Virus record (IMG/VR): IMGVR_UViG_3300005286_000507
Span: 1 to 51,020 of that record
Source of the DNA: a virus
Taxonomy: Duplodnaviria; Caudoviricetes
DNA length: 51,020 bases
Direction: 5' to 3' (one strand)
The translations under genes were made by a program, and so were the position numbers. The notes beneath the pieces were generated by a model. That model was not told where the DNA came from. It made no database searches and worked only from the letters and a program-made list of their open reading frames with translations. The number at the start of each line of letters is the position of its first letter. Position 1 is the first letter of the stretch. Positions 1 through 49,796 of the stretch are shown one piece after another.

Positions 1-225
1 ATGAAAATAGAGAAAATAATGGATAAAGACGAGTTAATAAACCGCAAAGCCAAGTGCGAAGGAATGGCTGAAGCTTATAAAGGATACAGCTTTTTAGGAT
101 TAGGGGTTCCCTTTATGGAAGAAGAAAAAAAGAAAGAAGCGGAGAGAAGGGAGAAAAATATGGAAAACATTCGTAATGAACGAGAAAAACGATTACATTT
201 TAAGTATCTTCAAACCCGTCAGTAA
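1..225 (+). CDS. Hypothetical protein, probably outside this prophage
   Basis: 74-aa ORF, AT-rich, no recognisable motif. Confidence 0.4.
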   Translation: MKIEKIMDKDELINRKAKCEGMAEAYKGYSFLGLGVPFMEEEKKKEAERREKNMENIRNEREKRLHFKYLQTRQ

Positions 226-343
226 AGAACTATTGATCTCATTTCGAATATTGGTGGACGCGTAGTGGACAATGCAATGTTTGTAATCGAAACAATGTCG
301 CCATTGAGATCGTAAACCGTGACGTATAAGGTTTTATAAACAA

Positions 344-389
344 AAAGTCGACCCCCGTCTCGCGACGGGGGCCTTCATGGGAGAGGAGG
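344..389 (-). other. Candidate attL core: GC-rich hairpin with T-tract on the minus strand preceded by CTCCTCTCCC (3' end of a small RNA?)
   Basis: CCCCCGTC-TCGC-GACGGGGG hairpin next to A-tract, ~140 bp beyond the integrase stop. Confidence 0.4.
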
Positions 390-499
390 GCTACCCTATA
401 TGATACGAACTGTTTAATGATGATATAGAGGTTATAACCCCTTAATTCATGCGAATTTACCGCTTAAATATGATAAAAGATGAAGAACAATGAGGTGTA

Positions 500-529
500 T
501 AACTACCAATTAACTACCATGAAACTACC
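500..529. repeat. AACTACC x3 direct repeats, putative integrase arm-type sites
   Basis: taactacca 500-508, taactacca 511-519, aactacc 523-529 at the integrase 3' end. Confidence 0.5.
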
Positions 530-1937
530 CATTAGATTTTCGCGTGGGAAGCAGGTCCTCAAACACTTCAGCCGCAGCTTCATCGACGGAGGCAAAGATC
601 TTTCCGTAGCGATCCACCATTTTCGTGCTTTTCCATCCTAACCGCTTCGCGATTGCCTTCGAATGAACATTTTTCGCAATCATAATAGATGTGGCGGTGT
701 GACGAATGCCGTGAAACGGTATATATTTCAGGTGTGGGTTTCGTTCGTGAAACGTTGCCCACTTTTTTCCTATTGAAGACGGGTATAGTGGGTTCCCTGT
801 TTTTAAGTTTTGAAAAATATAATAATCATCTTCACTATTGTTGATATCAATCACATTTTCTTTGCCAGCAGCTATTCGCATTAGTTTTTCGATCGTATTG
901 AAATAGTCTATCAGCATTTCAACAATTGATGAACTAAGCGCGAATAATCGAGGTTCGTCATTTTTAGGTCTTTTAATAACCGGTTTCCCATCTTCGAAAG
1001 CAGGTATCGTGTCTAAAACTTCGCAAGTTCCATTCCAGATTTGCTTTTCTGAATTATAGGTAAACACAAATTTATTTCGCTTTAATCCTAATAATTCAGC
1101 CCGCCTCATTCCAGTAGTCAAATCCAGGGTTACAAGCACTTGAAACATCAGTCGTTCAAACGCGTATCGAGGCTGTTTGTATCGGGTTTCGTTATATATA
1201 TCCTTTTCCATAGCCTCAAATAATTGCTCGAGTTCGGCTTCGCTGTAAGCTCCAGGTTTCTTTACGTCATTTTCCTCGGGCTTGTCCACTCCGTCCATAG
1301 GATTATCCTCAAGTTTTTTCCACTTAACCGCTTTGGAAAAAATACTCTTCAGAACGCGATAAATATATACGAGCGTAGCCGACTGAAGAGGTCCCGGTTT
1401 CCCGTCTAGTCGTTTGCCGATCTTGGTTTCAGGATTTCTCAGATCAGTCATGAATTTGACCAAATGAGCAGTAGATATTTCATCAAGAAACATAGCTTCA
1501 AAGTAAGGTACTATTCGAGTTTTGCAATGATATCTATAGTTCTGTCTTGTTTTAAATTCAAGTCCGGACACGTGGTGTTCATCCCAAAAACTTTCGAATT
1601 CAGCGAAAGGGATCCGGCCTGGATTTTTTTTGTGAGTACCGTTTTCGACTTCAATCTTGAACTTCATTAACATCTCGTCGAAATGTTGATCGAGTTTTTT
1701 TGCATGCCTCATGACTGTAACCGGAACATCTTTCTTGTCCAGAAACTTCTTTAAAGCCTTAGTAGCTTTGAGTGATGTTGGATCATATTCCTGTAATTTA
1801 TCGATTGTTTGAAGGAGGACGGGATCTTCGATACGATAGGTTTTTGTCATCGGCGTTCGCATCTTCCCGCGTGCATCGTACCCCATCGGAATGACAAGTC
1901 GCCAAGAAAGTTCGCCTCGCCTCGTAAAATAGGCCAT
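525..1937 (-). CDS. int: Prophage tyrosine integrase
   Basis: TGMRRAEL, FHGIRH, RLGW, terminal Tyr (DRYG); N-terminal arm-binding and SAM-like regions; ATG at 1937 follows a GAGGGG RBS. Confidence 0.95.
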   Translation of the reverse strand: MAYFTRRGELSWRLVIPMGYDARGKMRTPMTKTYRIEDPVLLQTIDKLQEYDPTSLKATKALKKFLDKKDVPVTVMRHAKKLDQHFDEMLMKFKIEVENGTHKKNPGRIPFAEFESFWDEHHVSGLEFKTRQNYRYHCKTRIVPYFEAMFLDEISTAHLVKFMTDLRNPETKIGKRLDGKPGPLQSATLVYIYRVLKSIFSKAVKWKKLEDNPMDGVDKPEENDVKKPGAYSEAELEQLFEAMEKDIYNETRYKQPRYAFERLMFQVLVTLDLTTGMRRAELLGLKRNKFVFTYNSEKQIWNGTCEVLDTIPAFEDGKPVIKRPKNDEPRLFALSSSIVEMLIDYFNTIEKLMRIAAGKENVIDINNSEDDYYIFQNLKTGNPLYPSSIGKKWATFHERNPHLKYIPFHGIRHTATSIMIAKNVHSKAIAKRLGWKSTKMVDRYGKIFASVDEAAAEVFEDLLPTRKSNG

Positions 1938-1953
1938 GTGCAATCCCCCTCAC

Positions 1954-1965
1954 GAATGTATGTTC
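1954..1965. promoter_or_regulatory. LexA (Cheo) box upstream of the integrase
   Basis: GAAC-ATAC-ATTC on the minus strand, 1 mismatch to GAAC-N4-GTTC. Confidence 0.55.
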
Positions 1966-1996
1966 TGGAAGGTCGGGAAAAGAAAAGCCCGGAGGC

Positions 1997-2302
1997 TTAT
2001 TCTTCCTTCTTTTCTTTTAGATCCTGGAGTAACTGGCGAAAAAGGTCGGCCGGCATTGCAAAGTTAGGCGTGTCTGTACGGCCTGTGCGTTGCCTGAAAC
2101 GCGTGAGATCTACGCCTAAGTGTTGACCATCAAATACAATCTCCTCAGGCTCCAGAAGGGCGTTATCGGCATGATCGGCCATTACGCCAAACTTGACCTC
2201 GCTAAAGTATGTCTTTTGCTCATCTGGTAAATGATTTTCGTCCGGGCGGAAGATTGCGATTCGGCGCTGTGGGCCGAGATCTACCTGTATACGAAAACGC
2301 AT
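1997..2302 (-). CDS. Hypothetical phage protein
   Basis: 101 aa, AAGGAGG RBS, co-oriented with int. Confidence 0.75.
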   Translation of the reverse strand: MRFRIQVDLGPQRRIAIFRPDENHLPDEQKTYFSEVKFGVMADHADNALLEPEEIVFDGQHLGVDLTRFRQRTGRTDTPNFAMPADLFRQLLQDLKEKKEE

Positions 2303-2313
2303 ATTTTTCCTCC

Positions 2314-2883
2314 TTAAGTGATTTGTTTGTAGAAATCAGGTATCTTGTTTTTACTCAAAAAGCTTTCTAGTTCATTGTAAAGGTTTTCTTTTCTTTCACT
2401 ATGATCCCCAACTCCTGATAAAACAGCAGAGGCGAAAGAAACGCAATAACCTCGCAAATCAAATACGTTGGTCTGAATGGTCAGAACAACATCAATTATT
2501 TCAGTTCCGCTTGGTGGATTTAATACTTCGAAATCACGAAGTAATAATTCGATTTCGTCTGTAATTCTCAGTTCATCATCTGATTGTACTGTATTTAACA
2601 GTTTGTGGTTCAACTTCTCTAGCTTATTTAGAGATATTGATAATTCCTTGACAAAGGCAATTTCATTTTTAACTTCGCTCAGTTTTGTCCTGACACCTGG
2701 GCTCTCATCAAGTTCCAACGATTTTTCGAATACCTCTACAGCACTGTTAAAATCGCCGGACTTATAATGTTCCCACGCTTGTTTATAAAGTTCATCCGAC
2801 TGTTCTTCCTTAGAAGGACCGCAACCCGAAAGCAATAAGAGTATACTTACTGCAATGATCAAATTTCTCATATTCTTCTCCAT
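2314..2883 (-). CDS. Lipoprotein with TPR-like repeat (possible superinfection exclusion)
   Basis: Signal peptide with lipobox LSGC; TPR-like AWEHYKSGDFNSAVEVFEKSLELD. Confidence 0.75.
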   Translation of the reverse strand: MEKNMRNLIIAVSILLLLSGCGPSKEEQSDELYKQAWEHYKSGDFNSAVEVFEKSLELDESPGVRTKLSEVKNEIAFVKELSISLNKLEKLNHKLLNTVQSDDELRITDEIELLLRDFEVLNPPSGTEIIDVVLTIQTNVFDLRGYCVSFASAVLSGVGDHSERKENLYNELESFLSKNKIPDFYKQIT

Positions 2884-2991
2884 CAGATCCCGATCGGCTC
2901 GGGGATTGGCTCATGTCATATTTTACTTGGTGTAAATCTTGGAATAACAATCTATCATGTTTATAACAACAAGATAAGGCAGCGTGATAGG

Positions 2992-3309
2992 GTGATTGGT
3001 ATTAATATCGAGAATAAGGATTTTGACGAATTTAGGATTATTGATGTAAATTACATAACTCTGACGAGACCGAGCAAGTCAAGAGAGTTGATTCCGATAT
3101 ATCACACTTCAAAAGGTTCATTTGCTCCGTTGTTGACTTTAAGGGATTTATCTAGGGCTTTAATTCCTCATGGATTTAAGCAGTTTGACAAATCTACCCT
3201 TGTCAATCGCAGGAGAATTTTACGAACTATACGGAGCAAAGATGGTCTTAGAATCGTCTTTGTCGATTTTTGCGAAGTGTGGGTATCCGGCAGAAGCCGC
3301 ATAAGATAA
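2992..3309 (+). CDS. Stand-alone LytTR DNA-binding domain protein
   Basis: GFKQFDKSTLVNRRRI resembles the LytTR F-x-R-x-H-R-S-x-L-V-N motif. Confidence 0.65.
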   Translation: MIGINIENKDFDEFRIIDVNYITLTRPSKSRELIPIYHTSKGSFAPLLTLRDLSRALIPHGFKQFDKSTLVNRRRILRTIRSKDGLRIVFVDFCEVWVSGRSRIR

Positions 3310-3814: not shown

Positions 3815-3952
3815 ATGGACGATCAGAATTCCAATAAGATTAACTCGTTAGTTGAGCAGAATATTCTTGATGATTTATTGATCGTTCTTTCTTCTTGCAG
3901 CGAGAGCGAGATCGAGAGCCTTAAGGAGTATTTCCTTAAACTCGGGGTCTGA
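3815..3952 (+). CDS. 45-aa acidic peptide, antisense-overlapping the CI 3' end
   Basis: MDDQNSNKINSLVEQNILDDLLIVLSSCSESEIESLKEYFLKLGV, GGATGGTG RBS, downstream of the SOS promoter. Confidence 0.45.
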   Translation: MDDQNSNKINSLVEQNILDDLLIVLSSCSESEIESLKEYFLKLGV

Positions 3953-4291
3953 CGTACTTGCATCATACTTATTAGCGACATTCTCAACCTCACGAACCGT
4001 CGACAAAAGGTTACGGTTTATTTTTTCATAGATGACATCATTTATATTTATTGAACTGTCATTGTCATCAACATCTAAATACCCCGCTATCTCCATCAAC
4101 TCCTTATAACCAACACCTAAGTGTGGACTTAACTTTTTTAAAATGTCTGGATTAGGTATCCCTCGCTTTCCATTTTCTATATGAGATAAATATGCGTTTG
4201 AAACACCGGAGTATAGTTCAAGCTGCCTTATTGTCATTTTCTTTGCCTTTCGAAGAGAACGTAAGTACAAACCGAATTCCAATGCATCCAT
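3875..4291 (-). CDS. CI-like repressor (XRE HTH, no S24 peptidase domain)
   Basis: MTIRQLELYSGVSNAYLSHIENGKR; divergent from Cro-like gene. Confidence 0.9.
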   Translation of the reverse strand: MDALEFGLYLRSLRKAKKMTIRQLELYSGVSNAYLSHIENGKRGIPNPDILKKLSPHLGVGYKELMEIAGYLDVDDNDSSININDVIYEKINRNLLSTVREVENVANKYDASTSDPEFKEILLKALDLALAARRKNDQ

Positions 4292-21309: not shown

Positions 21310-21734
21310 GAGAGTATAGAGGCAAGAGGATAGATAACGGTGAGTGGGTGTATGGATGGTATCTATTAGACGAACAGTGGAAAGAGCCGAGACATTGCAT
21401 TTACTTTCGTAAAAATACCCGGAATATCATTGGTCACGATATTGTCGAAGTCGATCCTGATACGGTAGGGCAATATATCGGACAACGTGATTGTAACGAT
21501 AAGCAAATTTTCGACGGAGACATTGCTACCGGTGAACACGCCACATACTTAATATACTGGAGAGAAGATAAGGCGCAGTATATGGCAAAGGTCATTAAAA
21601 CAACATCTGTTCTCATTCGCCACAACTCTTTCCCACTTTGGCAATACATCGAAGATAACGATAAATGCAGGTTTGAAGTCATCGGCAATCGTTGGGACCA
21701 TCCACATTTACTCGGGGAGGTTACAGAAAAATGA
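21306..21734 (+). CDS. yopX: YopX-family protein (second copy)
   Basis: MREYRGKRIDNGEWVYG, TVGQYIG, IFDGDI, EVIGNRWD. Confidence 0.88.
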   Translation: MREYRGKRIDNGEWVYGWYLLDEQWKEPRHCIYFRKNTRNIIGHDIVEVDPDTVGQYIGQRDCNDKQIFDGDIATGEHATYLIYWREDKAQYMAKVIKTTSVLIRHNSFPLWQYIEDNDKCRFEVIGNRWDHPHLLGEVTEK

Positions 21735-22015
21735 TCATAAAGAGAAATACAGCGCGGCAATGGGAAGAAGATATAGCGCTTTGCGACGGAGAAACAGAAG
21801 CAGAAATGGCTTTATCATATTGGCTGGAAGAGTCGAAAAAATTATCCGAAGTAGTGCAAACTCAACAACGAGAAATTATGTCACTAGAAGCGCTAATAAC
21901 AAAAATAAGTCGTATATCCCGGATGGAGGATCGCGCGGGACACTGGAAGGCATGGGATATCAAAGAATTACTGCGGGAGGCCGGAAAATATGAAGAAACT
22001 CGTCGGGGAGGATGA
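21731..22015 (+). CDS. Hypothetical phage protein
   Basis: GGAGG RBS, ATGA coupling. Confidence 0.55.
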   Translation: MIIKRNTARQWEEDIALCDGETEAEMALSYWLEESKKLSEVVQTQQREIMSLEALITKISRISRMEDRAGHWKAWDIKELLREAGKYEETRRGG

Positions 22016-22263
22016 GAAGGGATGAAAGAACTCGACTTGACTCGCAAACTCATCGCTCACGAAGACGGTGAAGAGCCATACGAGATAGATGGATTTAAGC
22101 TTGTGAAGCCAGATGGCGTGACGTTGTTTGTGGGACAGAAGGCGATTACGCTGCCGGCAGCAGACATTAAAATTGTCCAACAATAAGAAAGACCCCCGAT
22201 CCTGAGCTGGGGAGCCGGTCGGGGGAACGTATATTCCTACACCGATTATACCATAATCGAAGG

Positions 22264-22656
22264 GTGTGGGGGAGTGTGGGTACATTGCAATTAGAACTAT
22301 ATCCGAGTGCAACTGAAGCAGATAAAAAGATTGCAAAGGCGCTACTGAATAGGTACAGAAAGAACAAGAAAGTAATGGCTGAGTTCGAACGCAAAGGAAC
22401 GGACGGGCTTGCTAAAGACCAATTAAAGATATACAATACGGCGAAGAAGCAAGTCGAGTCCGTTGAAAGTGCCGTCAGACTGATACTTGATCCAGAGATC
22501 CGTGAGATGATCGAGCACAAGTACATCAATGGGGAGTTTCGCCGGCATAAAGACACGCTAATTAGGTTCAGCACTTGGGACCAGTCAACGGTCGGTCGTA
22601 AGCTTAACGAGGGCATAGAGTCTGTCGCGGAGAGTCTCATCCTCTTTAACTATTAA
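22264..22656 (+). CDS. ArpU/RinA-like late transcriptional activator
   Basis: AKALLNRY..VESAVRLILDPEIREMIEHKY; last gene of the early operon. Confidence 0.7.
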   Translation: MWGSVGTLQLELYPSATEADKKIAKALLNRYRKNKKVMAEFERKGTDGLAKDQLKIYNTAKKQVESVESAVRLILDPEIREMIEHKYINGEFRRHKDTLIRFSTWDQSTVGRKLNEGIESVAESLILFNY

Positions 22657-22715
22657 TATTGCACATAAAATGCTAGTTGGCGGCACGTAAAGAGAGAATA
22701 ATCCACACGTTATAT

Positions 22716-23032
22716 AGGGATACAGTAGAGTCAAATAGGGCAGAAGCCCGGGCGACTCCGCTGTATCCCTTATTACTTTGCGGACCCGGCCACGCGGTGG
22801 GTTAACGACCTTAGGCGCAAGTCGCCGAGCGTGTGGAGATGGGTATCGGGTTCGAGACCCGACAGGAGGGCTTGTCCCTTCTTCAATTAACCGGATCTTT
22901 CCGGCTAATCGAAGAGGCGATAAACCTCTAATAAAAACACCGATCCGACATTGTGTGTATAGCGACGATACATTCATGCGGGAGGTGTTTTCAGTTTGGC
23001 AAGACTGCCCAGCGTGGAGGCATAGTATCCGC
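22716..23032 (+). ncRNA. Putative large multi-hairpin structured RNA at the start of the late region
   Basis: About 8 consecutive hairpins, closing helix GCGGA(22780)/TCCGC(23028), no credible ORF. Confidence 0.5.
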
Positions 23033-23383
23033 GCTTCACGTTTTTATTCCCAACCTTCCTCCTCATAAAGGGGCGATCACATTGATCGTCCCAATTTTCT
23101 TTTAAAGGAGTTGTCCCGCCTTGGTTAAATGCAGAAAGATCCGCCGAAAGGGCGGGGTTAACTTACAACGAGATCGGAAAATGTTGCATCCGGAGCATCC
23201 CCCAGATAAATGCGTTGGCTGTCCTTATGGTCAGTGGAGAGATACAGTCCTATATTGCCCCTGGATCAAATGCATAAAGGAGGACAATCATGTTACAGCG
23301 GCTCAATAGATGGGTGGTTCGTAGACTCGCGCCTTTCGCCGGCCAAATGTCGCGGAATCGGAAGGAACGGAGGGTAAAACGTC

Positions 23384-23497
23384 ATGGAAAAACAGGATGA
23401 CGGACTGGGGTTCTTTCGAGGTCTCATTAATGCGCTCGGGTTGAGTGCAATAATGTGGGGTTTCATCGGATTGCTCGTCTGGTGGTGGTTGCCGTGA
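23384..23497 (+). CDS. 37-aa transmembrane peptide
   Basis: MEKQDDGLGFFRGLINALGLSAIMWGFIGLLVWWWLP; GGAGGG RBS; GTGA-coupled to the recombinase. Confidence 0.55.
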   Translation: MEKQDDGLGFFRGLINALGLSAIMWGFIGLLVWWWLP

Positions 23498-24108
23498 AGA
23501 CTGTCCAACCGATCCGGGACAAGGCGATCATAGTCCAGATCAAGAACTATCTGAAGGTTCGAAATTTCCGGGATTATCTTCTGTTTGCAATGGGAATTCA
23601 TAGCGGTTTACGGATTTCTGACTTACTCAACCTTCAGGTATGGCAAGTTAGAGGACAACTTCACGTCACTTTTATCGCCGAAAAGATTAAAAACCGCAGA
23701 AAGAAGCGGCGCAAGGAAAAAAAGTTCATAATCCATCCGGATTACCGTGAAGACTTGGAAATCTATATTCGGGATATGCCGGAGAATGCATATTTATTCG
23801 CTTCTAGGCAGCGGAAAACGAAAACCGGAGAAGTTGGACTTCCTGTTCGGCGGGAGACAGCTTGGAAAATGCTCAGTAAGGCAGCGCGGTATTTCGGACT
23901 CGAGGAAATTGGATGTCATTCGCTCCGAAAGACTTGGGGCTATCACATGATAACGAGCTCGCCGCCAGAGCAGTCCTCCTACGTCATGGCGTTACTAATG
24001 GAGGCGTTCGGCCATGAGTCTCAGGAAGACACTTTGCGCTATTTAGGGCTGACACAGGACGCTCTGGACGCTATGATTTTACGATTGAGTTACACTCAAA
24101 CCGGTTAA
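23494..24108 (+). CDS. Catalytic-domain-only tyrosine recombinase
   Basis: VQPIRD, SGLRISDLL, HSLRKTWGY, FGH, TLRYLG. Confidence 0.92.
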   Translation: MKTVQPIRDKAIIVQIKNYLKVRNFRDYLLFAMGIHSGLRISDLLNLQVWQVRGQLHVTFIAEKIKNRRKKRRKEKKFIIHPDYREDLEIYIRDMPENAYLFASRQRKTKTGEVGLPVRRETAWKMLSKAARYFGLEEIGCHSLRKTWGYHMITSSPPEQSSYVMALLMEAFGHESQEDTLRYLGLTQDALDAMILRLSYTQTG

Positions 24109-24332: not shown

Positions 24333-25085
24333 ATGGCTCCTGAACGTGGCGGAAACAGGGTTAAAGCCCTTGAAATGTGGATCAAAAGCAAGGGGAAACT
24401 GACTCCAAAAGAGATTGCGGACAAGCTTGGTGTGACGAGTGCGAGAGTACGCCAATGGAAGCACTTGGACAACTGGGACAACATCGAAATGAAACGTCCT
24501 CGCGGAGCTCCTAAGGGGAATAAGAACGCTGTTGGGAATAATGGCGGCGCTCCACTCGGGAATCAAAATGCAGTCAAACATGGTTATTATGCCAAGTACC
24601 TACCGGAGTCAATTCTTGAGATCGTAAAAGAAATCGAAGATGCCGATCCGCTCGAAATGCTTTGGAATAATATCATTATGCTTCAGGCGAAGCTTCTTCA
24701 CGGACAAAGAATTACTCACGTTAAAGATAAGGACGACATGACAAAAGAACTGAAACGTAAAAAGTTCATGCCTGGACAGTTTGGTGACGGAAAAGAAAAA
24801 GAATACGAAATCCAATTCGCTCATGATAAGTTCGCCAATGCCTCTAAAGCTGATGTATTAATGATGCGTGAATTACGAGGTGCTATTAAACAGTTTCTCG
24901 ACATGGCTCCTGAGAACGATGAACGCCGGGCTAAACTATCCCTGATGCAGGCACAGGTCGAAAAGACGAACGCTGAGGTTGAGAAGGTCAATGGCGGCGG
25001 CAAAAACTCCGAAGCAGAGGATTGGGTCGCGGCTCTTAAAGAAGCCGCCGAGAAGAGAAAGAGCCGGGTGAAGCCCGATGAGTAA
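24333..25085 (+). CDS. terS: Terminase small subunit
   Basis: N-terminal HTH, GAPKGNKNA/GAPLGNQNAVKHG. Confidence 0.9.
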   Translation: MAPERGGNRVKALEMWIKSKGKLTPKEIADKLGVTSARVRQWKHLDNWDNIEMKRPRGAPKGNKNAVGNNGGAPLGNQNAVKHGYYAKYLPESILEIVKEIEDADPLEMLWNNIIMLQAKLLHGQRITHVKDKDDMTKELKRKKFMPGQFGDGKEKEYEIQFAHDKFANASKADVLMMRELRGAIKQFLDMAPENDERRAKLSLMQAQVEKTNAEVEKVNGGGKNSEAEDWVAALKEAAEKRKSRVKPDE

Positions 25086-26505
25086 GCCATACAACGTCGT
25101 CGCCACGCTGACAGACCTGATCGACCTCTATTGGGATGATCCGGTATCCTTTTCCGAAGATATGCTCGATTTCGATCCCGACGATTGGCAGAGAGCGGCT
25201 ATGATGGACCTCGCGTCGAACCCGCGGGTTAGTGTTCGTTCCGGTCAGGGAGTCGGGAAAACAGCATTCGAAGCCGCTATTGTAATTTGGTTCCTGACAT
25301 GTCGGCCAAGCCCGAAGGTCATATGCACAGCTCCAACAAGGCAACAATTGCATGATGTCTTGTGGGCAGAAGTCGCCAAGTGGCTGGAAAGGTCGAAAGT
25401 AAAGAACCTCTTGAAGTGGACGAAGACGAAGATTTACATGATCGGCCATGAGGAAAGATGGTTCGCGACAGCCCGGACAGCTACACGTCCGGAGAACATG
25501 GCCGGATTTCATGAGGACTATATGCTGTTCGTGGTCGATGAAGCTTCAGGTGTTGCCGATCCAATCATGGAAACCATATTGGGTACGCTGACCGGACCTG
25601 AAAATAAACTGCTTATGTGCGGAAACCCTACGCGAACTGCGGGGGTTTTTTATGATTCACATAATCGGGACCGGTCAAGGTTCAAGGTTCACAAAGTCGA
25701 CAGCCGGGACAGCAAACGAACGAGCCGGGACAACATTCAAATGCTCATCGACAAGTATGGGGCCGAGAGCGACGTTGTTCGTGTTCGGGTTTACGGTGAA
25801 TTTCCCAAGGCAGAGTCGGATGCATTTATTGCGCTTGAGATCGTGGAATTGGCCGCAGGCGCAACCGTCGAACCAGTGGGAGATACCCTGCATTTGGGCG
25901 TGGACGTTGCGCGTTTTGGTGACGACGAGACAACGATAGCTCCACGGATCGGAATGAAGGTATTCGATCTAAGAGTCTATAACAAGCAAGACACGATGGC
26001 GACGGCTGGACGGGTAATTGCGGCCGGAAAGGAAATGCTCCGCTCCTTCACTCAACTACGAAACGTCGTGATTACGGTTGATGACAGCGGCGTAGGCGGT
26101 GGAGTTACGGACAGGCTGAACGAGGTCATTCTGGAAGAGCGTCTATACGATTGGCGAGTCATTCCGATCAATAACGGCAGCCGGCCGACGGACGACGAAG
26201 AGGAACATTATGAGAACCGCGGAACAGAAGCATGGGCCGTCATTCGCGACGTGCTGCAGGACTGTTTTTCGAAACACCTGCAAGGCGAACCAATCAGCGT
26301 TGAACTGCCTAACGACGAACGCTTGATAACCCAACTGTCGCAAAGGAAATACCGCATGACAAGCAAAGGCAAGATTGCACTTGAACGTAAAGAGGACATG
26401 AAGAAACGTGGGCTTGATTCTCCGGACCGCGCAGACGCGGTTGTTCTTTCGTTCGTGACTGATAAGGAAATGCTCTATAGCAATCAACGTCCTTCTGGTT
26501 GGTAA
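25078..26505 (+). CDS. terL: Terminase large subunit
   Basis: SGQGVGKT, VVDEASG, GNPT, GVDVARFGDD, SPDRADA. Confidence 0.95.
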   Translation: MSKPYNVVATLTDLIDLYWDDPVSFSEDMLDFDPDDWQRAAMMDLASNPRVSVRSGQGVGKTAFEAAIVIWFLTCRPSPKVICTAPTRQQLHDVLWAEVAKWLERSKVKNLLKWTKTKIYMIGHEERWFATARTATRPENMAGFHEDYMLFVVDEASGVADPIMETILGTLTGPENKLLMCGNPTRTAGVFYDSHNRDRSRFKVHKVDSRDSKRTSRDNIQMLIDKYGAESDVVRVRVYGEFPKAESDAFIALEIVELAAGATVEPVGDTLHLGVDVARFGDDETTIAPRIGMKVFDLRVYNKQDTMATAGRVIAAGKEMLRSFTQLRNVVITVDDSGVGGGVTDRLNEVILEERLYDWRVIPINNGSRPTDDEEEHYENRGTEAWAVIRDVLQDCFSKHLQGEPISVELPNDERLITQLSQRKYRMTSKGKIALERKEDMKKRGLDSPDRADAVVLSFVTDKEMLYSNQRPSGW

Positions 26506-42323: not shown

Positions 42324-42344
42324 ACGGAACATTTTGTGCAGCAA
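42313..42344. other. Putative recombination site B (12-8-12)
   Basis: ACGCTGAATAAA-CGGAACAT-TTTGTGCAGCAA; outer arm is the exact reverse complement of the site A outer arm. Confidence 0.6.
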
Positions 42345-42842: not shown

Positions 42843-42862
42843 ATAATCCCCCCGGAAACTTG

Positions 42863-42914
42863 ATACGAATAACGTATAACACTATACTATAGATAGTCAA
42901 TACGAAAAACGTAT
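42863..42914. promoter_or_regulatory. Twin palindromic operators between the HTH and recombinase genes
   Basis: ATACG-AATAA-CGTAT (42863-42877) and ATACG-AAAAA-CGTAT (42900-42914). Confidence 0.7.
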
Positions 42915-42932: not shown

Positions 42933-43925
42933 ATGCAGGCTGCCGGGGAGCATTTACTGTCTCAAGTCACTCAGTCGTTGTTCGCGCTTTGTCCAACCGT
43001 CAGTGTACCGGACATTCAGGCGCGGCTGTCGGAAATCATCTCTCAATATGACATCAAGAGAATTGAATCGGAGGAGCCGCATCCAGATCTTCAAGAGAAG
43101 ATTGAACTTTTTTTGTCGGGAAAGAAGCTTGAAGGCCTATCGCCGTTGTCACTGGATGGGTATCGGCTCCAACTCCGAGTATTCTCCGAGCACGTAAAAA
43201 AGAGGGTCGAGGACATCACGACGGCAGACCTCAGGGTCTACCTTGGGCGCTTCCAGCATTTGAAGAGCGCAACCCTGTCGTCAAAGCTGTCCGTGCTCAA
43301 GTCGTTCTTCGGTTGGTTGACCGCTGAGGATATCATTCCAAAGGACCCTTCCGCAAAAATTAAACCACCGAAGAAAGAAAAGCGGCTGCCGAAGGCGCTC
43401 ACGATCGAAGAGCTTGAAATGATGCGCGAAGCTTGTAAGACGATCCGCGAGCGGGCCCTGATCGAAGCTATGTATGCAACCGGCTGCCGCCTTTCGGAGG
43501 TTCAGAAACTCAACCGGTCTGACATCAACTTTACCACGCAGTCATGCCGCGTGATCGGCAAGGGCAATAAGGAGCGCGAAGTTTACTTCAGCTTCAAGGC
43601 GATCTACCACCTGAAGAAATACTTCCTCTCACGAGGAGACCAGGAGCAAGCGTTGTTTATCACGGAGCGCCGGCCGTACCGCCGTATTTCGAAGCGAGGC
43701 ATTCAACGGGAAATTGGAATCATCGCAGTTCGAGCGAAGATCCCTAAGAACGTAACGCCTCATACGCTCCGCCACACTTTCGCGACGCTAACGCTTAATA
43801 ACGGCGCCGAACTGGTGGCCGTGCAAGAATTGCTGGGCCATGAAAACCCGGCGACAACACAGATATACGCTTCGATCACCGCGGAGCGTAAACGGGAACA
43901 GCATAGAAAATATCTCGTTCAATAA
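42933..43925 (+). CDS. XerD-like tyrosine recombinase (third in the prophage)
   Basis: SAM-like domain, TGCRLSE, GKGNKER, HTLRHT, LGH, TTQIY. Confidence 0.95.
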   Translation: MQAAGEHLLSQVTQSLFALCPTVSVPDIQARLSEIISQYDIKRIESEEPHPDLQEKIELFLSGKKLEGLSPLSLDGYRLQLRVFSEHVKKRVEDITTADLRVYLGRFQHLKSATLSSKLSVLKSFFGWLTAEDIIPKDPSAKIKPPKKEKRLPKALTIEELEMMREACKTIRERALIEAMYATGCRLSEVQKLNRSDINFTTQSCRVIGKGNKEREVYFSFKAIYHLKKYFLSRGDQEQALFITERRPYRRISKRGIQREIGIIAVRAKIPKNVTPHTLRHTFATLTLNNGAELVAVQELLGHENPATTQIYASITAERKREQHRKYLVQ

Positions 43926-47153: not shown

Positions 47154-47354
47154 ATGGGCACTAATGAACTCCTTGCTTTAATCGTCTTATCAATTCTTAT
47201 TGGTGGTTACATCGTTCTAATCCCGCTTTACTTGGTCAAACGTGCGGAGCTTGAGACGTTATGGAGATGTCACCGAAAGGTATGTGATGAAAGAAATGAA
47301 GCACACATAAAAATCGAAAAGCTCACTCTTGGTTCGGGACAGACGGAACATTGA
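47154..47354 (+). CDS. Small membrane protein
   Basis: GGAGG RBS, N-terminal TM helix. Confidence 0.5.
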   Translation: MGTNELLALIVLSILIGGYIVLIPLYLVKRAELETLWRCHRKVCDERNEAHIKIEKLTLGSGQTEH

Positions 47355-47859
47355 ATTTCCTGACATATTTCTTTCGAGAAGTATGAAAAGTGATTCTGAT
47401 TTTTTCTAATGAGTGTTCACCAAGATCAAAATACAGTGTCTTTCTGATTGTTTCAAACGGTTCAATAATAACAGGAAGCATGAGTACATTACTCTTGAAC
47501 GTTAAACTGTCAATGTCATGGTATTGCACAGGTTGCCTTAACAATAAGTGCTCAATTCCGCCAATAACAATTGCTATTTCATAGATTGATATTGGATGGA
47601 CAGATTTATTTATGAAATTAAATTCTATACAAAGACCGGAAGTATGAACACTTCGGTCTGCAACGGGCTGGCCCCACTCATCTTTTTTGTAACTAAATAT
47701 CTTGAAGTAGAATGGATCAGATCCTTTTGCGAGTTCAAATCGAACGGCTGATCTCTCTTTTAAGTGCCGCGATACGTTCATGCCTAAGGATATTAGCCCT
47801 GCGACTCCGCCGATGATCGGCAATACAACTGTAAGCAAGTTATCAATAGAAAAGTACAT
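47323..47859 (-). CDS. Counter-oriented membrane-anchored moron protein
   Basis: GGGAGG RBS before MYFSIDN; N-terminal TM; AT-rich. Confidence 0.7.
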   Translation of the reverse strand: MYFSIDNLLTVVLPIIGGVAGLISLGMNVSRHLKERSAVRFELAKGSDPFYFKIFSYKKDEWGQPVADRSVHTSGLCIEFNFINKSVHPISIYEIAIVIGGIEHLLLRQPVQYHDIDSLTFKSNVLMLPVIIEPFETIRKTLYFDLGEHSLEKIRITFHTSRKKYVRKFNVPSVPNQE

Positions 47860-47939
47860 GATTTGCCTCCCTTTTAGTCGTACTTCGACAACATGGGAGG
47901 TTTTTCCTTGCAAACAAACGTTCTAAGGAGGACTCAATT

Positions 47940-48173
47940 ATGGCAACCATCAATAACAAAATTGTATTAGAGGCAGATCCACGGAAGCCGATTCCAGAAA
48001 TTTGTTCAGTCATCACACACTTCCTGCAGATGTGGCCGGGGAGTGAGAAATTGATCTTGGAAGGGGTGAAAAAAGAAATTGAAGGAACATTGGCCAATCT
48101 TGAAAAAGCGCAGACGAAGCCCATGCCGGCCGCGAGACCGACCAACAACCGCAGACGCAAGAAGAGAAAATAA
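47940..48173 (+). CDS. Hypothetical protein
   Basis: AAGGAGG RBS; terminator at 48172-48195. Confidence 0.65.
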   Translation: MATINNKIVLEADPRKPIPEICSVITHFLQMWPGSEKLILEGVKKEIEGTLANLEKAQTKPMPAARPTNNRRRKKRK

Positions 48174-48212
48174 GCCCCTCTGAGGGCTTTTTATTATGGG
48201 GGTGGGGATTGG

Positions 48213-48595: not shown

Positions 48596-48943
48596 ATGCA
48601 AGCATATATCGATCAAGTCGTGCAGGCCCTCGTTGGCCTGCTTGTTGTCTTTGTCCTGGGCGTCATCGCGTCCCTGCGCGTAAAGGTTAACGCCTGGCTG
48701 GCGAGCCGAACGACAGCCCAGCAGCGGGAAATCCTACATCGGTTGGCGACGGAGGGCATGGCATTGGCCGAGGCCACTTATGCATCTCTGGACGGCCCAG
48801 CCAAACTAAACAGGGCACTCCAGTATGTCGTAGAACGTGCGAGCGCATATGGGATCGACGTCTCTGTGGAGACGATCAGGGCGGCCGTAGAAAAGGTGGT
48901 CCTCGAATACAACAGCAAGGTAAAAAGCGGTGAAGGTCAATGA
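48596..48943 (+). CDS. Holin (LL-H-like)
   Basis: N-terminal TM; AEATY..GPAKLNRA..IRAAVEKVV. Confidence 0.8.
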   Translation: MQAYIDQVVQALVGLLVVFVLGVIASLRVKVNAWLASRTTAQQREILHRLATEGMALAEATYASLDGPAKLNRALQYVVERASAYGIDVSVETIRAAVEKVVLEYNSKVKSGEGQ

Positions 48944-49758
48944 ACGTCGTCTACTACAGCCAAGAGGACAAGCGATGGGCAAACATCCCGTACACGATCC
49001 GCAACGACCCCAAGCAGACCATAGGCACGTCAGCTTGCGGACCAACCTGTCTAGCGATGGTCGTAGCGACATGGCGGGATAAGTCCATTAGGCCTTCTGA
49101 TACAGCAAAGTGGGCAATTGCACACGGATACAGGACGCCCAATGACGGCACGGCCTGGGGTTACTTTAAGGCGGCGGCCGAGAAGGAGTACGGTCTAAAC
49201 TGTAAACAGACTGGTAGCCTGGAGGAGGTTAAGCGGGCGCTCTCATTGGGGGCGCTCGTTATTGCGTCTATGGGGCCGGGAGACTTTACGGGCGGGGGGC
49301 ATTATATCCTGCTTGTGGGGATCAGCGGGCGCATGATCGATGTCTTTGACCCCAACCACGATAACACCAAATACGGCAAACTGGTTGACCAAGGGATCCG
49401 TAATGACGGCAAGGTACGGGCGGACGAGTCCGTATTCAAAGCGCAAGCGCGGCAGTATTGGATTTTTACCAAACCAATAAACGAGGAGGACGAACCGATG
49501 ACAGATACGGAGCGTAATCAATTTGAGGCGTTGGACAATAAGGTGGACAAGCTGACAAGTATGGTAACAACGCTCACGATGCAACTCGCGGCATCTAAAG
49601 AGCTTGTTCAGCCGCCGCCGTGGTTTGTGAATGAATTCGAGTGCGAAGGACAACCGAGTGTCCTGAAGAAGATGAGCGATCCGATCGGCACAACGGACTT
49701 TTGGAGATCGTTGGCCGTGTCTCTCCGGATGCAGGGGCTCGGCAAAAAAGGAGAGTAA
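48940..49758 (+). CDS. Endolysin candidate with C39-like papain-fold peptidase
   Basis: YYSQ, ACGPTCLAM, GHYILL, FDP; directly after the holin. Confidence 0.8.
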   Translation: MNVVYYSQEDKRWANIPYTIRNDPKQTIGTSACGPTCLAMVVATWRDKSIRPSDTAKWAIAHGYRTPNDGTAWGYFKAAAEKEYGLNCKQTGSLEEVKRALSLGALVIASMGPGDFTGGGHYILLVGISGRMIDVFDPNHDNTKYGKLVDQGIRNDGKVRADESVFKAQARQYWIFTKPINEEDEPMTDTERNQFEALDNKVDKLTSMVTTLTMQLAASKELVQPPPWFVNEFECEGQPSVLKKMSDPIGTTDFWRSLAVSLRMQGLGKKGE

Positions 49759-49764
49759 GGATTC

Positions 49765-49796
49765 AGCCCGGGAGCTTAGGCTCTTGGGCTTTTTTT
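49765..49796 (+). terminator. Terminator of the lysis operon
   Basis: AGCCCGGGAGC-TTAG-GCTCTTGGGCT-TTTTTT. Confidence 0.85.

Follow-up and report, generated by a model that had tools for sequence, protein, structure and literature searches.

Processive antitermination by RNA alone is known from very few systems. One is the put RNA of lambdoid phage HK022, whose two stem-loops act on early operons of this phage of Gram-negative bacteria; we know of no built-in anti-structure in put. Another is the EAR RNA, for which antitermination has, to our knowledge, been tested only with the copy from B. subtilis. Phage lambda relies on a protein antiterminator, Q, which is loaded at a sigma-dependent pause; the late leader there comprises the Q gene, PR' with qut, the 6S RNA, and the terminator tR', after which the long late operon begins. 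Late genes of Gram-positive temperate phages are turned on by activators such as RinA, ArpU, LtrC, and Alt, and Alt of TP901-1 is said to have direct repeats upstream of the late promoter.

In the portions of the literature available to us, put and EAR are the RNA-only processive antiterminators named, and the mechanism of EAR is called unknown (PMC8191782, PMC8632103, PMC11658703). Similar excerpts present EAR as a processive antiterminator with long-range action in the eps operon (PMC8191782, PMC11658703, PMC2864571), and a figure legend shows a pseudoknot that joins NGGN in the 5' flank to NCCN in the P1 loop (PMC2864571). Full-text searching of the available literature, which did not extend to Irnov and Winkler 2010 or Goodson and Winkler 2018, turned up no report of EAR from a phage, and the literature searched described no association of EAR with RinA/ArpU/LtrC/Alt activators.

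The window analyzed here (the whole stretch of viral DNA, 51,020 nucleotides) carries a full-length EAR in the 5' leader of a prophage late operon. We think it likely that this RNA makes the polymerase resistant to termination and that the regulator encoded just upstream switches late transcription on. A sequence-only reading of the window had proposed a densely structured RNA at 22716-23103, and the density is real. The plus-strand fold of the region has an energy of -161.8 kcal/mol, whereas shuffles average -119.7 (sd 6.0; z -7.04) and 0/100 of them fold as well; the minus strand gives a z of -6.17. That reading took the region for an unannotated phage noncoding RNA with ~320 nt of consecutive helices. 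Its core at 22751-22861 (plus strand) instead matched EAR/epsC RNA (Rfam RF01735) over the full model (positions 1-117 of 117) with 55.1 bits, where the cut-off is 42 and E, taken over the whole window, is 1.3e-06. Under the rule that the reading had itself set, such a match to a known family rules out a new one. Nor is the region one 320-nt domain: it is a composite leader whose separate parts are, in order, promoter-like repeats, a strand that we term anti-EAR, the small hairpin P0, EAR, a conserved hairpin on its 3' side, ~140 nt that show no conservation, and a terminator.

All EAR elements could be placed on the plus strand: P1 (22757-22761 with 22780-22784), P2 (22785-22796 with 22830-22843), P3 (22799-22803 with 22807-22811), P4 (22814-22817 with 22823-22826), P5 (22847-22851 with 22857-22861), and the pseudoknot, which has three pairs in the window (G22750-22752 with C22767-22769). 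P5 corresponds to the TCGGGT...ACCCGA hairpin previously described as T-loop-like. That resemblance, together with the bracketing of the region by a promoter-like site and a terminator, could suggest a free-standing small RNA of ~360 nt that ends at the leader terminator and functions in trans, or a degenerate tRNA-like element. We consider both highly improbable: ARAGORN found 0 tRNA or tmRNA genes in the window, conservation is missing from the 140 nt that precede the terminator, and the sole Rfam match is to a cis-acting family. Overlapping open reading frames at 22778-23068 and 22953-23105 (plus strand) and 22585-22977 (minus strand) had no Pfam family, and coding is argued against by length differences among relatives that are not multiples of three.

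Homologs collected from other phages allowed a comparative test of the fold, and compensatory changes were seen in EAR and the anti-EAR helix (24 non-redundant leaders) and in the 3' hairpin (14 leaders). The 24 leaders include near-identical sets (window/L002, L005/L006, L026/L030, and L018/L031/L107), so independent lineages number nearer 12-14. Across the 24, paired fractions were 94% for P2, 91% for P3, 94-96% for P4, 92% for P5, and 90% for the pseudoknot. The EAR covariation score was 0.236 versus 0.131 for shuffled alignments (0/500), with compensatory change in 15 of 39 pairs. P1 was only 38% paired on the MAFFT alignment; taken alone, it forms a hairpin in 24/24 leaders with several different stem sequences (CCGC/GCGG, CCCGC/GCGGG, GCCAC/GUGGC, GUCAAUG/CAUUGAU, and GUCUAC/GUAGGC across lineages). 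Covariation of the pseudoknot is also visible in host-type EARs (GGU/ACC, GGC/GCC, and GGA/UCC). Phage EARs scored 46-101 bits among relatives, and the window copy is among the lowest, next to L002 (48.7 bits), L183 (46.3 bits), and L184 (48.7 bits).

The location of EAR at the head of the late operon, proposed earlier, was borne out by PHROG and Pfam assignments, which place a 26.6-kb late operon at 23121-49758 (plus strand). Its order is a small Cys-rich ORF, a small integrase-family gene, TerS, TerL, portal, head, tail, and holin, and its last ORF (48940-49758, plus strand) has no PHROG match. The operon also contains a recombinase insert (42933-43925) and one minus-strand ORF (47323-47913). 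Nine plus-strand intrinsic terminator-like sites lie inside this co-oriented cluster between 23070 and 48189. Eight of them were listed before (about 26861, 30027, 32560, 35403, 42344, 43924, 47107, and 48172), and all eight look like a hairpin plus U tract in an intergenic gap. The ninth ends the leader. A final terminator-like site follows the lysis genes at 49765 (plus strand). By analogy with B. subtilis eps, the nascent EAR would convert the transcribing polymerase to a termination-resistant form, which would then cross the leader terminator at 23070 and eight more over 26.6 kb to reach the lysis genes. The sequence-only reading had offered a put/EAR-like antitermination RNA as one hypothesis. 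Its guess of EAR was right as to family and setting, a full-length RF01735 member heading a terminator-rich late operon, and antitermination itself is probable by that same analogy.

Directly upstream, and 94 nt before EAR begins, is a gene of about 130 aa at 22264-22656 (plus strand; the start is a mechanical ORF call) that belongs to phrog_21810 (E 2.5e-25). Its product would turn on late transcription. The gene had been read as ArpU, but its ArpU/RinA similarity is only remote, with matches to phrog_248 ("transcriptional activator") at E 0.0024 and, in relatives, down to E 1.4e-08. The protein scored 14.2 bits against TIGR01636, below the cut-off of 31.9 (E 0.036; range 0.02-0.04), and had no Pfam ArpU-type match at E <=0.01. 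In the predicted structure (pLDDT 81.5), residues 52-130 superpose on sigma region 4 of ECF sigma factors (SigL 6dv9_F) with an rmsd of 1.9 A over 73 residues in VIA-align and a Z of 8.3, a value near 8 being modest for helical proteins. Most of the top 25 rows of a wide VIA-align search were sigma region 4, and a Foldseek search of the PDB with this model gave nothing at E <=0.001. The firm assignments are phrog_21810 and a sigma-region-4-like fold. Neither the protein nor the leader DNA (window 22657-23130; L192 1860-2060) had a match in a 50,697-record phage collection.

The pairing of this gene with EAR recurs. By protein-profile search, an EAR follows a phrog_21810-type gene in 21/22 viral loci, the sole exception being L191, a record that is 27% complete and carries three tandem paralogues. 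A single-protein search found EAR at 5/7 loci, and the two misses are matches of 22 residues. Downstream of the phage EARs are terminase, HNH, small integrase-family, or tail genes. None of the 57 host-type (polysaccharide-type) EAR loci has a phrog_21810-type gene on the EAR strand, and a polysaccharide-synthesis gene lies downstream in 52 of the 55 host-type loci tested. EAR is known from positions within or ahead of exopolysaccharide or capsule operons of Bacillales; the window leader and the 23 others precede phage late genes instead. The polysaccharide-operon location belongs to the context and not to the RNA. A pattern search of viral contigs for GGTACAGT-N(22-50)-CTGTACC gave chance matches and was of no use for counting; among the 80 loci examined of the matches listed, one (L201) had an EAR-like sequence behind the pattern. 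L201 is the same contig as L009.

Such constant adjacency could also mean that the phage EAR needs the phrog_21810 protein as a cofactor on the RNA or polymerase, as conAn2 needs ConAn1 on pLS20, and that the protein is an antitermination factor instead of, or besides, a promoter activator. Published accounts state that no work has excluded a cofactor for EAR (PMC8191782, PMC11658703), and a weak Foldseek row does point to the antiterminator Q21 (rank 32, E 1.7). We nonetheless judge this reading unlikely, as host-type EARs do without the gene, the confident fold match of the protein is to DNA-binding sigma region 4, and the DNA between gene and EAR looks suited to recognition by such a protein.

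That DNA holds five GCAC-type words with an 11-nt period at 22661-22710 (plus strand), which we propose as binding sites for the regulator: GCACAT at 22661, GCTAGT at 22672, GCACGT at 22683, a degenerate copy at 22694, and ACACGT at 22705. The periodicity score was 22/30 versus a shuffle mean of 17.4 (2/500 shuffles reach 22), and period 11 outscored 9, 10, 12, and 13. The layout is significant in 23/24 leaders, while the word itself varies with protein lineage (GCAC, GCGA, TGTCC, or TGACGG). Lineage-specific words spaced at 11 nt, the DNA helical repeat, beside a -10-like element fit DNA recognition. The element is TACAGT at 22721-22726, a putative late promoter core, with an A at 22733 as the putative start (both plus strand). 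TAC[AT][GT]T occurs in 24/24 leaders and is followed 7 nt later by an A in 24/24; T21, A22, C23, T26, and A33 are invariant columns of alignment A2. A sigma-70 consensus scan did not list TACAGT at 22721-22726 among its sites. We suggest that the regulator binds the periodic words next to TACAGT and that late transcription starts at this A. A search for RNA sequencing runs containing window 22250-23350 listed none, which says nothing either way about expression.

Two further conserved hairpins flank EAR. P0 (GGGC-AGAA-GCCC, 22738-22749, plus strand) lies directly 5' of it and is present in leaders with differing stem sequences. Compensatory change was seen in 3/4 pairs of the window stem and 3/3 P0 pairs of RNAalifold; on the MAFFT alignment, differences in stem length hold P0 pairing to 60.6%. 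On the other side, RNAalifold on 14 leaders gave a conserved 3' hairpin outside the Rfam model (22865-22929, plus strand), a long imperfect stem (22872-22923) with a CCGG/CCGG cap (22891-22904), flanked by GGAGG/CCUCU in the minimum-energy fold of the window. Eleven of its 18 pairs show compensatory change, the apical C-G/G-C pairs are invariant, and the hairpin also forms in the minimum-energy and centroid folds of the window. The CCGGA/TCCGG helix proposed earlier is its apical stem, with CGG/CCG pairs invariant or nearly so in 14/14 leaders. Other proposed helices fared less well. AGGAGGG/CCCTTCT and AGAGG/CCTCT may form local hairpins, but the comparative consensus differs, pairing the CCCTTCT-side bases with the GAAGAGG side within one long hairpin. 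AAAACACC/GGTGTTTT, CAGT/ACTG, and GCGGA/TCCGC appear in the minimum-energy fold of the window but drew no comparative support (0 consensus pairs).

These three lie in the stretch at 22930-23069 (plus strand), a variable spacer that aligned poorly among nine leaders and gave no consensus pair. Behind it, as had been noted, is a terminator-like hairpin with a T tract (stem-loop 23070-23092; full site 23070-23102, plus strand). Its stem has 10 bp, six of them G-C, with a 3-nt loop, a T-rich tail, and an energy of -15.1 kcal/mol. In 17/24 leaders, a terminator of this kind separates EAR from the first late ORF; the other seven had no clear terminator after EAR.

We then turned to the anti-EAR strand at 22716-22732 (plus strand), which pairs with 22754-22770. 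The AGGGATACAG/CTGTATCCCT helix in the sequence-only reading is part of this duplex, which is longer than claimed (16 of 17 positions pair). Its target takes in the 5' flank of EAR, the 5' strand of P1, and those bases of the P1 loop that form the pseudoknot. The duplex in the window has an energy of -27.7 kcal/mol (z -8.1, 0/200 shuffles), and a comparable duplex of 15-19 bp that excludes P1 and the pseudoknot is found in 24/24 phage leaders. On alignment A2, 83.7% of anti-EAR cells pair versus 29-51% when the strand is slid, 8/17 pairs show compensatory change, and RNAalifold predicted the helix unprompted. Upstream of the 57 host-type EARs, an anchored duplex test found no such strand (mean -8.7 kcal/mol, z -0.1). 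This "off" helix is conserved and has not been described before.

How might two incompatible folds be used? Our best mechanistic account, proposed and not demonstrated, is that late-promoter transcripts alone become termination resistant. The anti-EAR strand overlaps the -10 region TACAGT and ends one base before the proposed start at A22733. Transcripts begun at the late promoter would lack the strand, fold an active EAR, and cross all terminators. In transcripts reading in from early or middle genes, the anti-EAR helix would replace P1 and the pseudoknot, and these would stop at the leader terminator. We found no terminator between the regulator gene and the leader in any of the 24 loci, nor any within <=600 nt upstream of EAR (0/24). 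We hold this promoter-gated model tentatively, at somewhat under even odds.

The long 5' helix could also be a constitutive clamp present in all late transcripts, with P1 and the pseudoknot vestigial and no switch. Across leaders it is far more stable than P1 (-20 to -32 versus -5 to -11 kcal/mol), and RNAfold and RNAalifold predict it whenever the strand is present; with the distal strand removed, minimum-energy folding gave P1 in just 6/24 leaders (RNAfold, which cannot model pseudoknots). However, covariation between the two strands of P1 persists across lineages, and 90% of cells retain the local pairing of the pseudoknot, neither of which is expected of vestiges. We therefore regard a clamp as improbable.

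A local attenuator appears very unlikely to us. Here, the anti-EAR and EAR folds would govern the leader terminator alone, in the manner of a riboswitch or a protein-dependent system and without processive resistance, and the internal terminators would be leaky or served by internal promoters. Two mutually exclusive conserved folds do sit directly upstream of a terminator in 17/24 leaders, but neither overlaps it: the terminator is ~210 nt off across an unconserved spacer, eight further terminators lie downstream, and the element matches, over its full length, a family to which processive action is ascribed.

This locus compares with the known systems as follows. The phage copies belong to the same family as the EARs of B. 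subtilis eps and Bacillales capsule operons, with P1-P5 and the pseudoknot conserved, and both kinds lie upstream of long operons containing intrinsic terminators. The host operons carry polysaccharide genes, whereas the phage EAR heads a prophage late operon behind a gene for a sigma-region-4-like regulator. The phage leaders add the anti-EAR strand, P0, the conserved 3' hairpin, usually a terminator close behind, the lineage-specific words with an 11-nt period, and the invariant TACAGT with an A 7 nt later. Their P1 loop reads CUGUAYCC as opposed to UUACCGUU in host EARs. Like the phage EAR as proposed here, put is described in the source excerpts as a phage-encoded, cis-acting nascent RNA for terminator read-through of a phage operon (PMC8191782, PMC9378689). 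Compared by description, conAn of pLS20 also comes from a Gram-positive mobile element and has an RNA heading a long operon with a small protein gene beside it; in the excerpts seen, conAn2 RNA is much larger than EAR and dependent on ConAn1 (PMC8191782). Unlike conAn2, the EAR family is reported to act without a dedicated protein.

Lambda shows the same order of regulator gene, late promoter, short terminator-ended leader, and long operon needing a promoter-proximal antitermination signal. Its engagement is specific to one promoter, as we propose for the phage EAR; the difference is that the antiterminator here is RNA and not the Q protein, and promoter specificity would come from omitting an inhibitory strand. 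With RinA/ArpU/LtrC/Alt-type systems the locus shares a gene for a small protein immediately ahead of the terminase genes, remote sequence similarity, and, as reported for Alt of TP901-1, direct repeats upstream of the (here putative) late promoter. In contrast to those activators, the regulator falls below every curated cut-off and has its own PHROG (21810).

Taken together, what is new is the phage context and the built-in off helix, the RNA family itself being known. About two dozen natural EAR variants with a conserved competing helix are now supplied, and the helix singles out P1 and the pseudoknot as the parts of EAR whose folding is required. If gating is true, it would provide a natural on/off pair for dissecting EAR action, and an element made only of RNA would have the promoter specificity for which lambda uses the Q protein. 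The module could become a compact insulator or antiterminator part for Gram-positive synthetic biology. EAR, until now a curiosity of biofilm biology, becomes a transcription module that is mobile and reusable, is linked to a defined class of late regulators, and belongs to the standard equipment of late-operon leaders in temperate phages of the Paenibacillaceae and their relatives. For these phages, the anti-EAR helix suggests a simple means by which early read-through may be kept from switching on the lysis genes.

Folding of the stretch from 22716 to 23103, singled out earlier as densely structured RNA, gave −161.8 kcal/mol versus a mean of −119.7 for 100 dinucleotide-preserving shuffles (z −7.04), none of which folded as well; the minus strand gave a z of −6.17. 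An Rfam scan of the whole window, a provirus record of 51,020 bases rated 98% complete, placed RF01735 (epsC, or EAR) at 22751-22861 (+) with 55.1 bits versus a curated cut-off of 42 (E 1.3e-06), the match spanning model positions 1 to 117 of 117. The sequence-only reading had taken this for an unannotated RNA, possibly EAR-like. The second half of that idea was right and the first was not; by sequence and structure, the window RNA belongs to the EAR family. No other Rfam family matched anywhere in the window. ARAGORN found no tRNA or tmRNA there; the T-loop-like hairpin noticed previously is real, but it corresponds to stem P5 of the EAR model rather than to part of a tRNA. ORFs overlapping the structured stretch matched no Pfam family, and the insertion lengths that separate relatives across it were not multiples of three. 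The sole EAR feature that the window RNA lacked was the polysaccharide-operon context.

Weinberg et al. (2010, PMC2864571) place the epsC motif in the 5′ UTRs of Bacillales exopolysaccharide genes and note its independent discovery as EAR, with transcription antitermination activity and a predicted pseudoknot. Miguel-Arribas et al. (2021, PMC8191782) and a 2024 Tn916 paper (PMC11658703) both name put of HK022 and the EAR of biofilm or capsule operons as the RNA antiterminators that need no dedicated protein; in both, a host cofactor for EAR is not excluded. According to a 2021 review (PMC8632103), the mode of action of EAR still awaits testing. Full-text searches of the literature returned no EAR in a phage, the primary EAR paper lying outside that search.

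PHROG and Pfam scans gave the gene layout of a typical temperate siphovirus. The integrase (525-1943) and repressor (3875-4291) are on the minus strand, and the plus strand carries anti-repressor, recombination and replication genes, two ABA-sandwich genes, YopX and a regulator ORF of 130 amino acids (22264-22656; phrog_21810, E 2.5e-25, with a weak match to phrog_248, “transcriptional activator”). The first ORF past the leader terminator (23121-23309, +) encodes a Cys-rich protein of 62 amino acids (CxxC...C...C) with no Pfam or PHROG match. Further along the plus strand are an integrase-family protein of 217 amino acids (23455-24108; phrog_216, Pfam Phage_integrase), TerS (24333-25085), TerL (25078-26505), the portal, head, connector and tail genes 3′ of TerL, a holin (48596-48943) and a final ORF that stops at 49758. 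On the plus strand, hairpins with U-tracts occupy intergenic gaps at 23070, 26861, 30027, ~32560, 35403, ~42344, 43924, ~47107, 48172 and 49765, and include all eight late-region terminators predicted from sequence. The late operon contains nine such intrinsic terminator-like sites, and none was found on the plus strand within 21500-23069.

Several genes of this region drew separate attention. Small ORFs with a PP..C.GC.WG.W motif, similar by eye to 23121-23309, follow the terminator in loci L003, L107, L092, L189, L190, L195, L196 and L197. In several other loci, the interval from the EAR leader to the terminase genes again holds the short integrase-family protein (187 to 217 amino acids; phrog_216) (L002 5011-5580, L003 4958-5527, L005 3044-3607, L006 1383-1946, L018 2085-2657 and L031 2082-2654); the gene at 23455-24108, beside the packaging genes, is separate from the prophage integrase at 525-1943. 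A tyrosine recombinase gene of 330 amino acids (42933-43925, +; phrog_1, E 1e-54) lies within the tail module, flanked by the intrinsic terminators at 42344 and 43924, with the region's best sigma-70-like promoter match (10/12) 5′ of it at 42860-42888. Possible readings are a moron, an inserted element or a tail-gene-switching recombinase. A lone minus-strand gene (47323-47913) sits between the tail and lysis modules, adjoined by a hairpin (48172-48189) that is terminator-like read from either strand.

Searching viral contigs with the regulator protein returned seven loci. All five with full-length matches (L002-L006) carried an EAR above the Rfam cut-off ~80 to 95 nt 3′ of the gene, and Rfam found none at the two with 22-residue matches. 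A pattern of 20 letters from the EAR core hit 50 stretches of viral sequence; these, less three repeated contigs and with L002-L008 added, made 54 sources, of which 13 had an EAR by Rfam scan. Twelve of the 13 lay directly 3′ of a phrog_21810 gene (E 1e-25 to 1e-34), with integrase-family, HNH, TerS/TerL or tail genes next in line. L045 (109 bits), the remaining one, has the classical EAR context: it is flanked by CpsB/CapC-like and EpsC-like genes, at one edge of a provirus call. A profile of 12 phrog_21810-type proteins found 22 viral loci, 12 of them repeats of contigs already verified; 9 of the 10 new loci had an EAR at 46 to 101 bits, bringing the pairing to 21 of 22. The only exception, L191, has no EAR in its record of 13,150 bases (27% complete) and carries three tandem regulator paralogues of 118, 119 and 122 amino acids at 1492-2626. 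Ten viral contigs that the core pattern hit by chance (L010, L012, L015, L029, L037, L038, L039, L041, L043 and L044) carry an unrelated Mu-gpT-DE RNA (Rfam, 69 to 72.5 bits). At L020 (1873-3020), tail-terminator and tail-sheath genes directly follow the EAR leader with no terminase between, which suggests a contractile-tail element or tailocin-like cluster with the same leader.

As a control, the core pattern was run against one-genome-per-species contigs and matched at least 80 loci. Among the 80 matches listed, 19 were non-Firmicute chance matches and 61 were EAR-like by eye in Bacillales or Paenibacillaceae; all 10 of the 61 checked with Rfam passed. Four of the 61 were of the phage kind: L091 and L107 (Paenibacillus sp. 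S-38), L092 (P. silviterrae) and L097 (Cohnella sp. AR92), whose leader is identical to that of L026. A profile search of same-strand ORFs found a phrog_21810-like protein in all four phage-kind loci and in none of the 57 host-type loci among the matches listed. The downstream ORF was of testable length in 55 of those 57, and in 52 it was a polysaccharide gene (42 Polysacc_synt_2 of the EpsC/CapD type, 8 NTP_transferase, 1 glycosyltransferase and 1 sugar transferase); no such gene was identified in L060, L064 or L126. L091 (oriented 1-3279) keeps the periodic words, TACAGT, anti-EAR strand and EAR (92 bits) intact; its regulator-like ORF lies ~1.6 kb upstream beyond an ORF of 442 amino acids, a YaaC-like gene comes next, and the leader terminator is lacking. 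This may be a remodelled or decaying prophage.

We aligned 24 nonredundant phage leaders, leaving out L097 (identical to L026), L183 (close to L184) and refetched duplicates in L179-L200. Because close relatives were kept (window/L002, L005/L006, L026/L030 and L018/L031/L107), the number of independent lineages is nearer 12 to 14. The structure scored was that of the Rfam EAR model plus the pseudoknot and P0, a small hairpin on the 5′ side; 82.4% of cells paired and 15 of 39 pairs had compensatory changes. The covariation score was 0.236 versus 0.131 for shuffled alignments (reached by 0 of 500) and at most 0.128 with partners slid. Pairing per helix was 94% for P2, 91% for P3, 94 to 96% for P4, 92% for P5, 90% for the pseudoknot, 61% for P0 and 38% for P1, this last figure being low due to MAFFT misalignment of stems of unequal length. 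Folded alone, the P1 segment formed a single hairpin in all 24 leaders (−5 to −11 kcal/mol), with stems including CCGC/GCGG, CCCGC/GCGGG, GCCAC/GUGGC, GUCAAUG/CAUUGAU and GUCUAC/GUAGGC.

The first helix of the sequence-only reading proved to belong to a duplex of 15 to 19 bp present in all 24 leaders (−20 to −32 kcal/mol; z −4 to −9; reached by 0 of 200 shuffles in each). Its 5′ side, the anti-EAR strand (22716-22732), lies 20 to 45 nt 5′ of EAR and pairs at 16 of 17 positions with 22754-22770, comprising the EAR 5′ flank, the P1 5′ strand and loop bases used by the pseudoknot. Across the alignment, 83.7% of cells paired versus 29 to 51% when slid, 8 of 17 pairs had compensatory changes, and 0 of 500 shuffles reached the covariation. 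With the 5′ parts alone as input, the RNAalifold consensus contained this helix together with P0 but lacked P1. In pseudoknot-free minimum-energy folds, P1 appeared in 0 of 24 leaders with the anti-EAR strand included, at least four P1 5′-strand bases being paired with it in 19 of 24, and in 6 of 24 with it omitted. No such partner was found 5′ of the 57 host-type EARs among the matches listed (mean best duplex, −8.7 kcal/mol; mean z, −0.1). Comparative data show a conserved helix predicted to compete with P1 and the pseudoknot. Covariation of the P1 5′ strand with each of its two partners suggests selection for both folds, the signature of a switch.

In the interval from the regulator gene to the anti-EAR strand, all leaders except L189 (23 of 24) repeat a 5- to 6-nt word at an 11-nt period, a score reached by at most 4 of 500 shuffles and better than at periods of 9, 10, 12 or 13. 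The word tracks protein lineage: GCAC in the window, L002 and L003 (69 to 93% protein identity to the window), GCGA in L004, L005, L006, L009, L026, L030 and L184 (42 to 52%), TGTCC/TGTCT in the L018 group (32 to 34%) and TGACGG in L190. Within the anti-EAR strand, every leader has the hexamer TAC[AT][GT]T (TACAGT in the window, 22721-22726); in every leader an A stands exactly 7 nt past it (22733), which is the spacing of a −10 element to a start site.

Right after EAR, a 3′ hairpin (~22872-22923) is common to 14 leaders of several lineages, with 18 consensus pairs, 11 of them with compensatory changes, and an invariant apical CGG/CCG. By eye, a local hairpin, GAGG-N7-8-CCTC (22914-22929), overlaps its 3′ strand in nine leaders, with GAGAG/CTCTC in L026 and L030; the two may be a second pair of alternative folds. 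The spacer from the 3′ hairpin to the terminator is not conserved, and a short TTGTGTG-type motif recurs by eye in these otherwise unalignable spacers (window 22958-22968, L003, L009, L026 and L030). In 17 of 24 leaders, EAR is separated from the first late ORF by a clear intrinsic terminator, and none was found within 600 nt 5′ of EAR in any of the 24. The parts that make up a conserved unit are the regulator gene, periodic words, TACAGT, EAR and, in most leaders, a terminator. The phage context, phrog_21810 coupling, anti-EAR helix and 3′ hairpin are not described in the literature searched; the primary EAR paper, supplements or the Rfam full hit list may already note prophage copies.

An AlphaFold model of the regulator from a 12-sequence alignment was all-helical (mean pLDDT, 81.5; pTM, 0.73), and Foldseek gave no match at an E of ≤0.001. 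VIA-align against 48,161 chains matched residues 52 to 130 with region 4 of sigma factors, those of the ECF group among them, and most of the best 25 rows were sigma region 4; the best row had a Z of 8.3, modest for helical proteins, and an rmsd of 1.9 Å over 73 residues. NCBIfam matches to sigma factors and RinA were all subthreshold. We take this protein to be a late regulator that binds DNA through a sigma-region-4-like domain; its kinship to the RinA/ArpU class is remote, and no curated threshold makes it a member.

Taken together, the late operon has at its head an EAR-family RNA whose structure is conserved. We propose that the regulator would bind the periodic words and activate a promoter with TACAGT as its −10 element. 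Late transcripts would begin near A22733, just 5′ of P0, and so lack the anti-EAR strand; EAR would then fold and, as the eps EAR is reported to do, make polymerase resistant to terminators, so that transcription would continue as far as the lysis genes. In outline, the activated promoter and the EAR-driven resistance are together probable. More tentatively, the anti-EAR strand may silence EAR only in transcripts entering from the regulator's operon. EAR would stay inactive in these, as the anti-EAR strand is made first and its helix is far more stable than P1, and they would end at the leader terminator. Such read-in would explain why a terminator so often sits right after a terminator-defeating RNA and why none lies between the regulator gene and the leader. 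Counting against this gating, TACAGT agrees with the sigma-A −10 consensus at four of six positions with no −35 partner, it is absent from the output of the consensus promoter scan, and its conservation is partly explicable by anti-EAR pairing alone.

The phage EAR unit resembles conAn of pLS20 in joining an RNA with a small neighboring gene, and phage EAR would be, like HK022 put, a cis-acting phage antiterminator RNA. The late leader of lambda has a Q-PR′-tR′ layout. The phage EAR leader is like it in layout, with an RNA that would act in place of Q.
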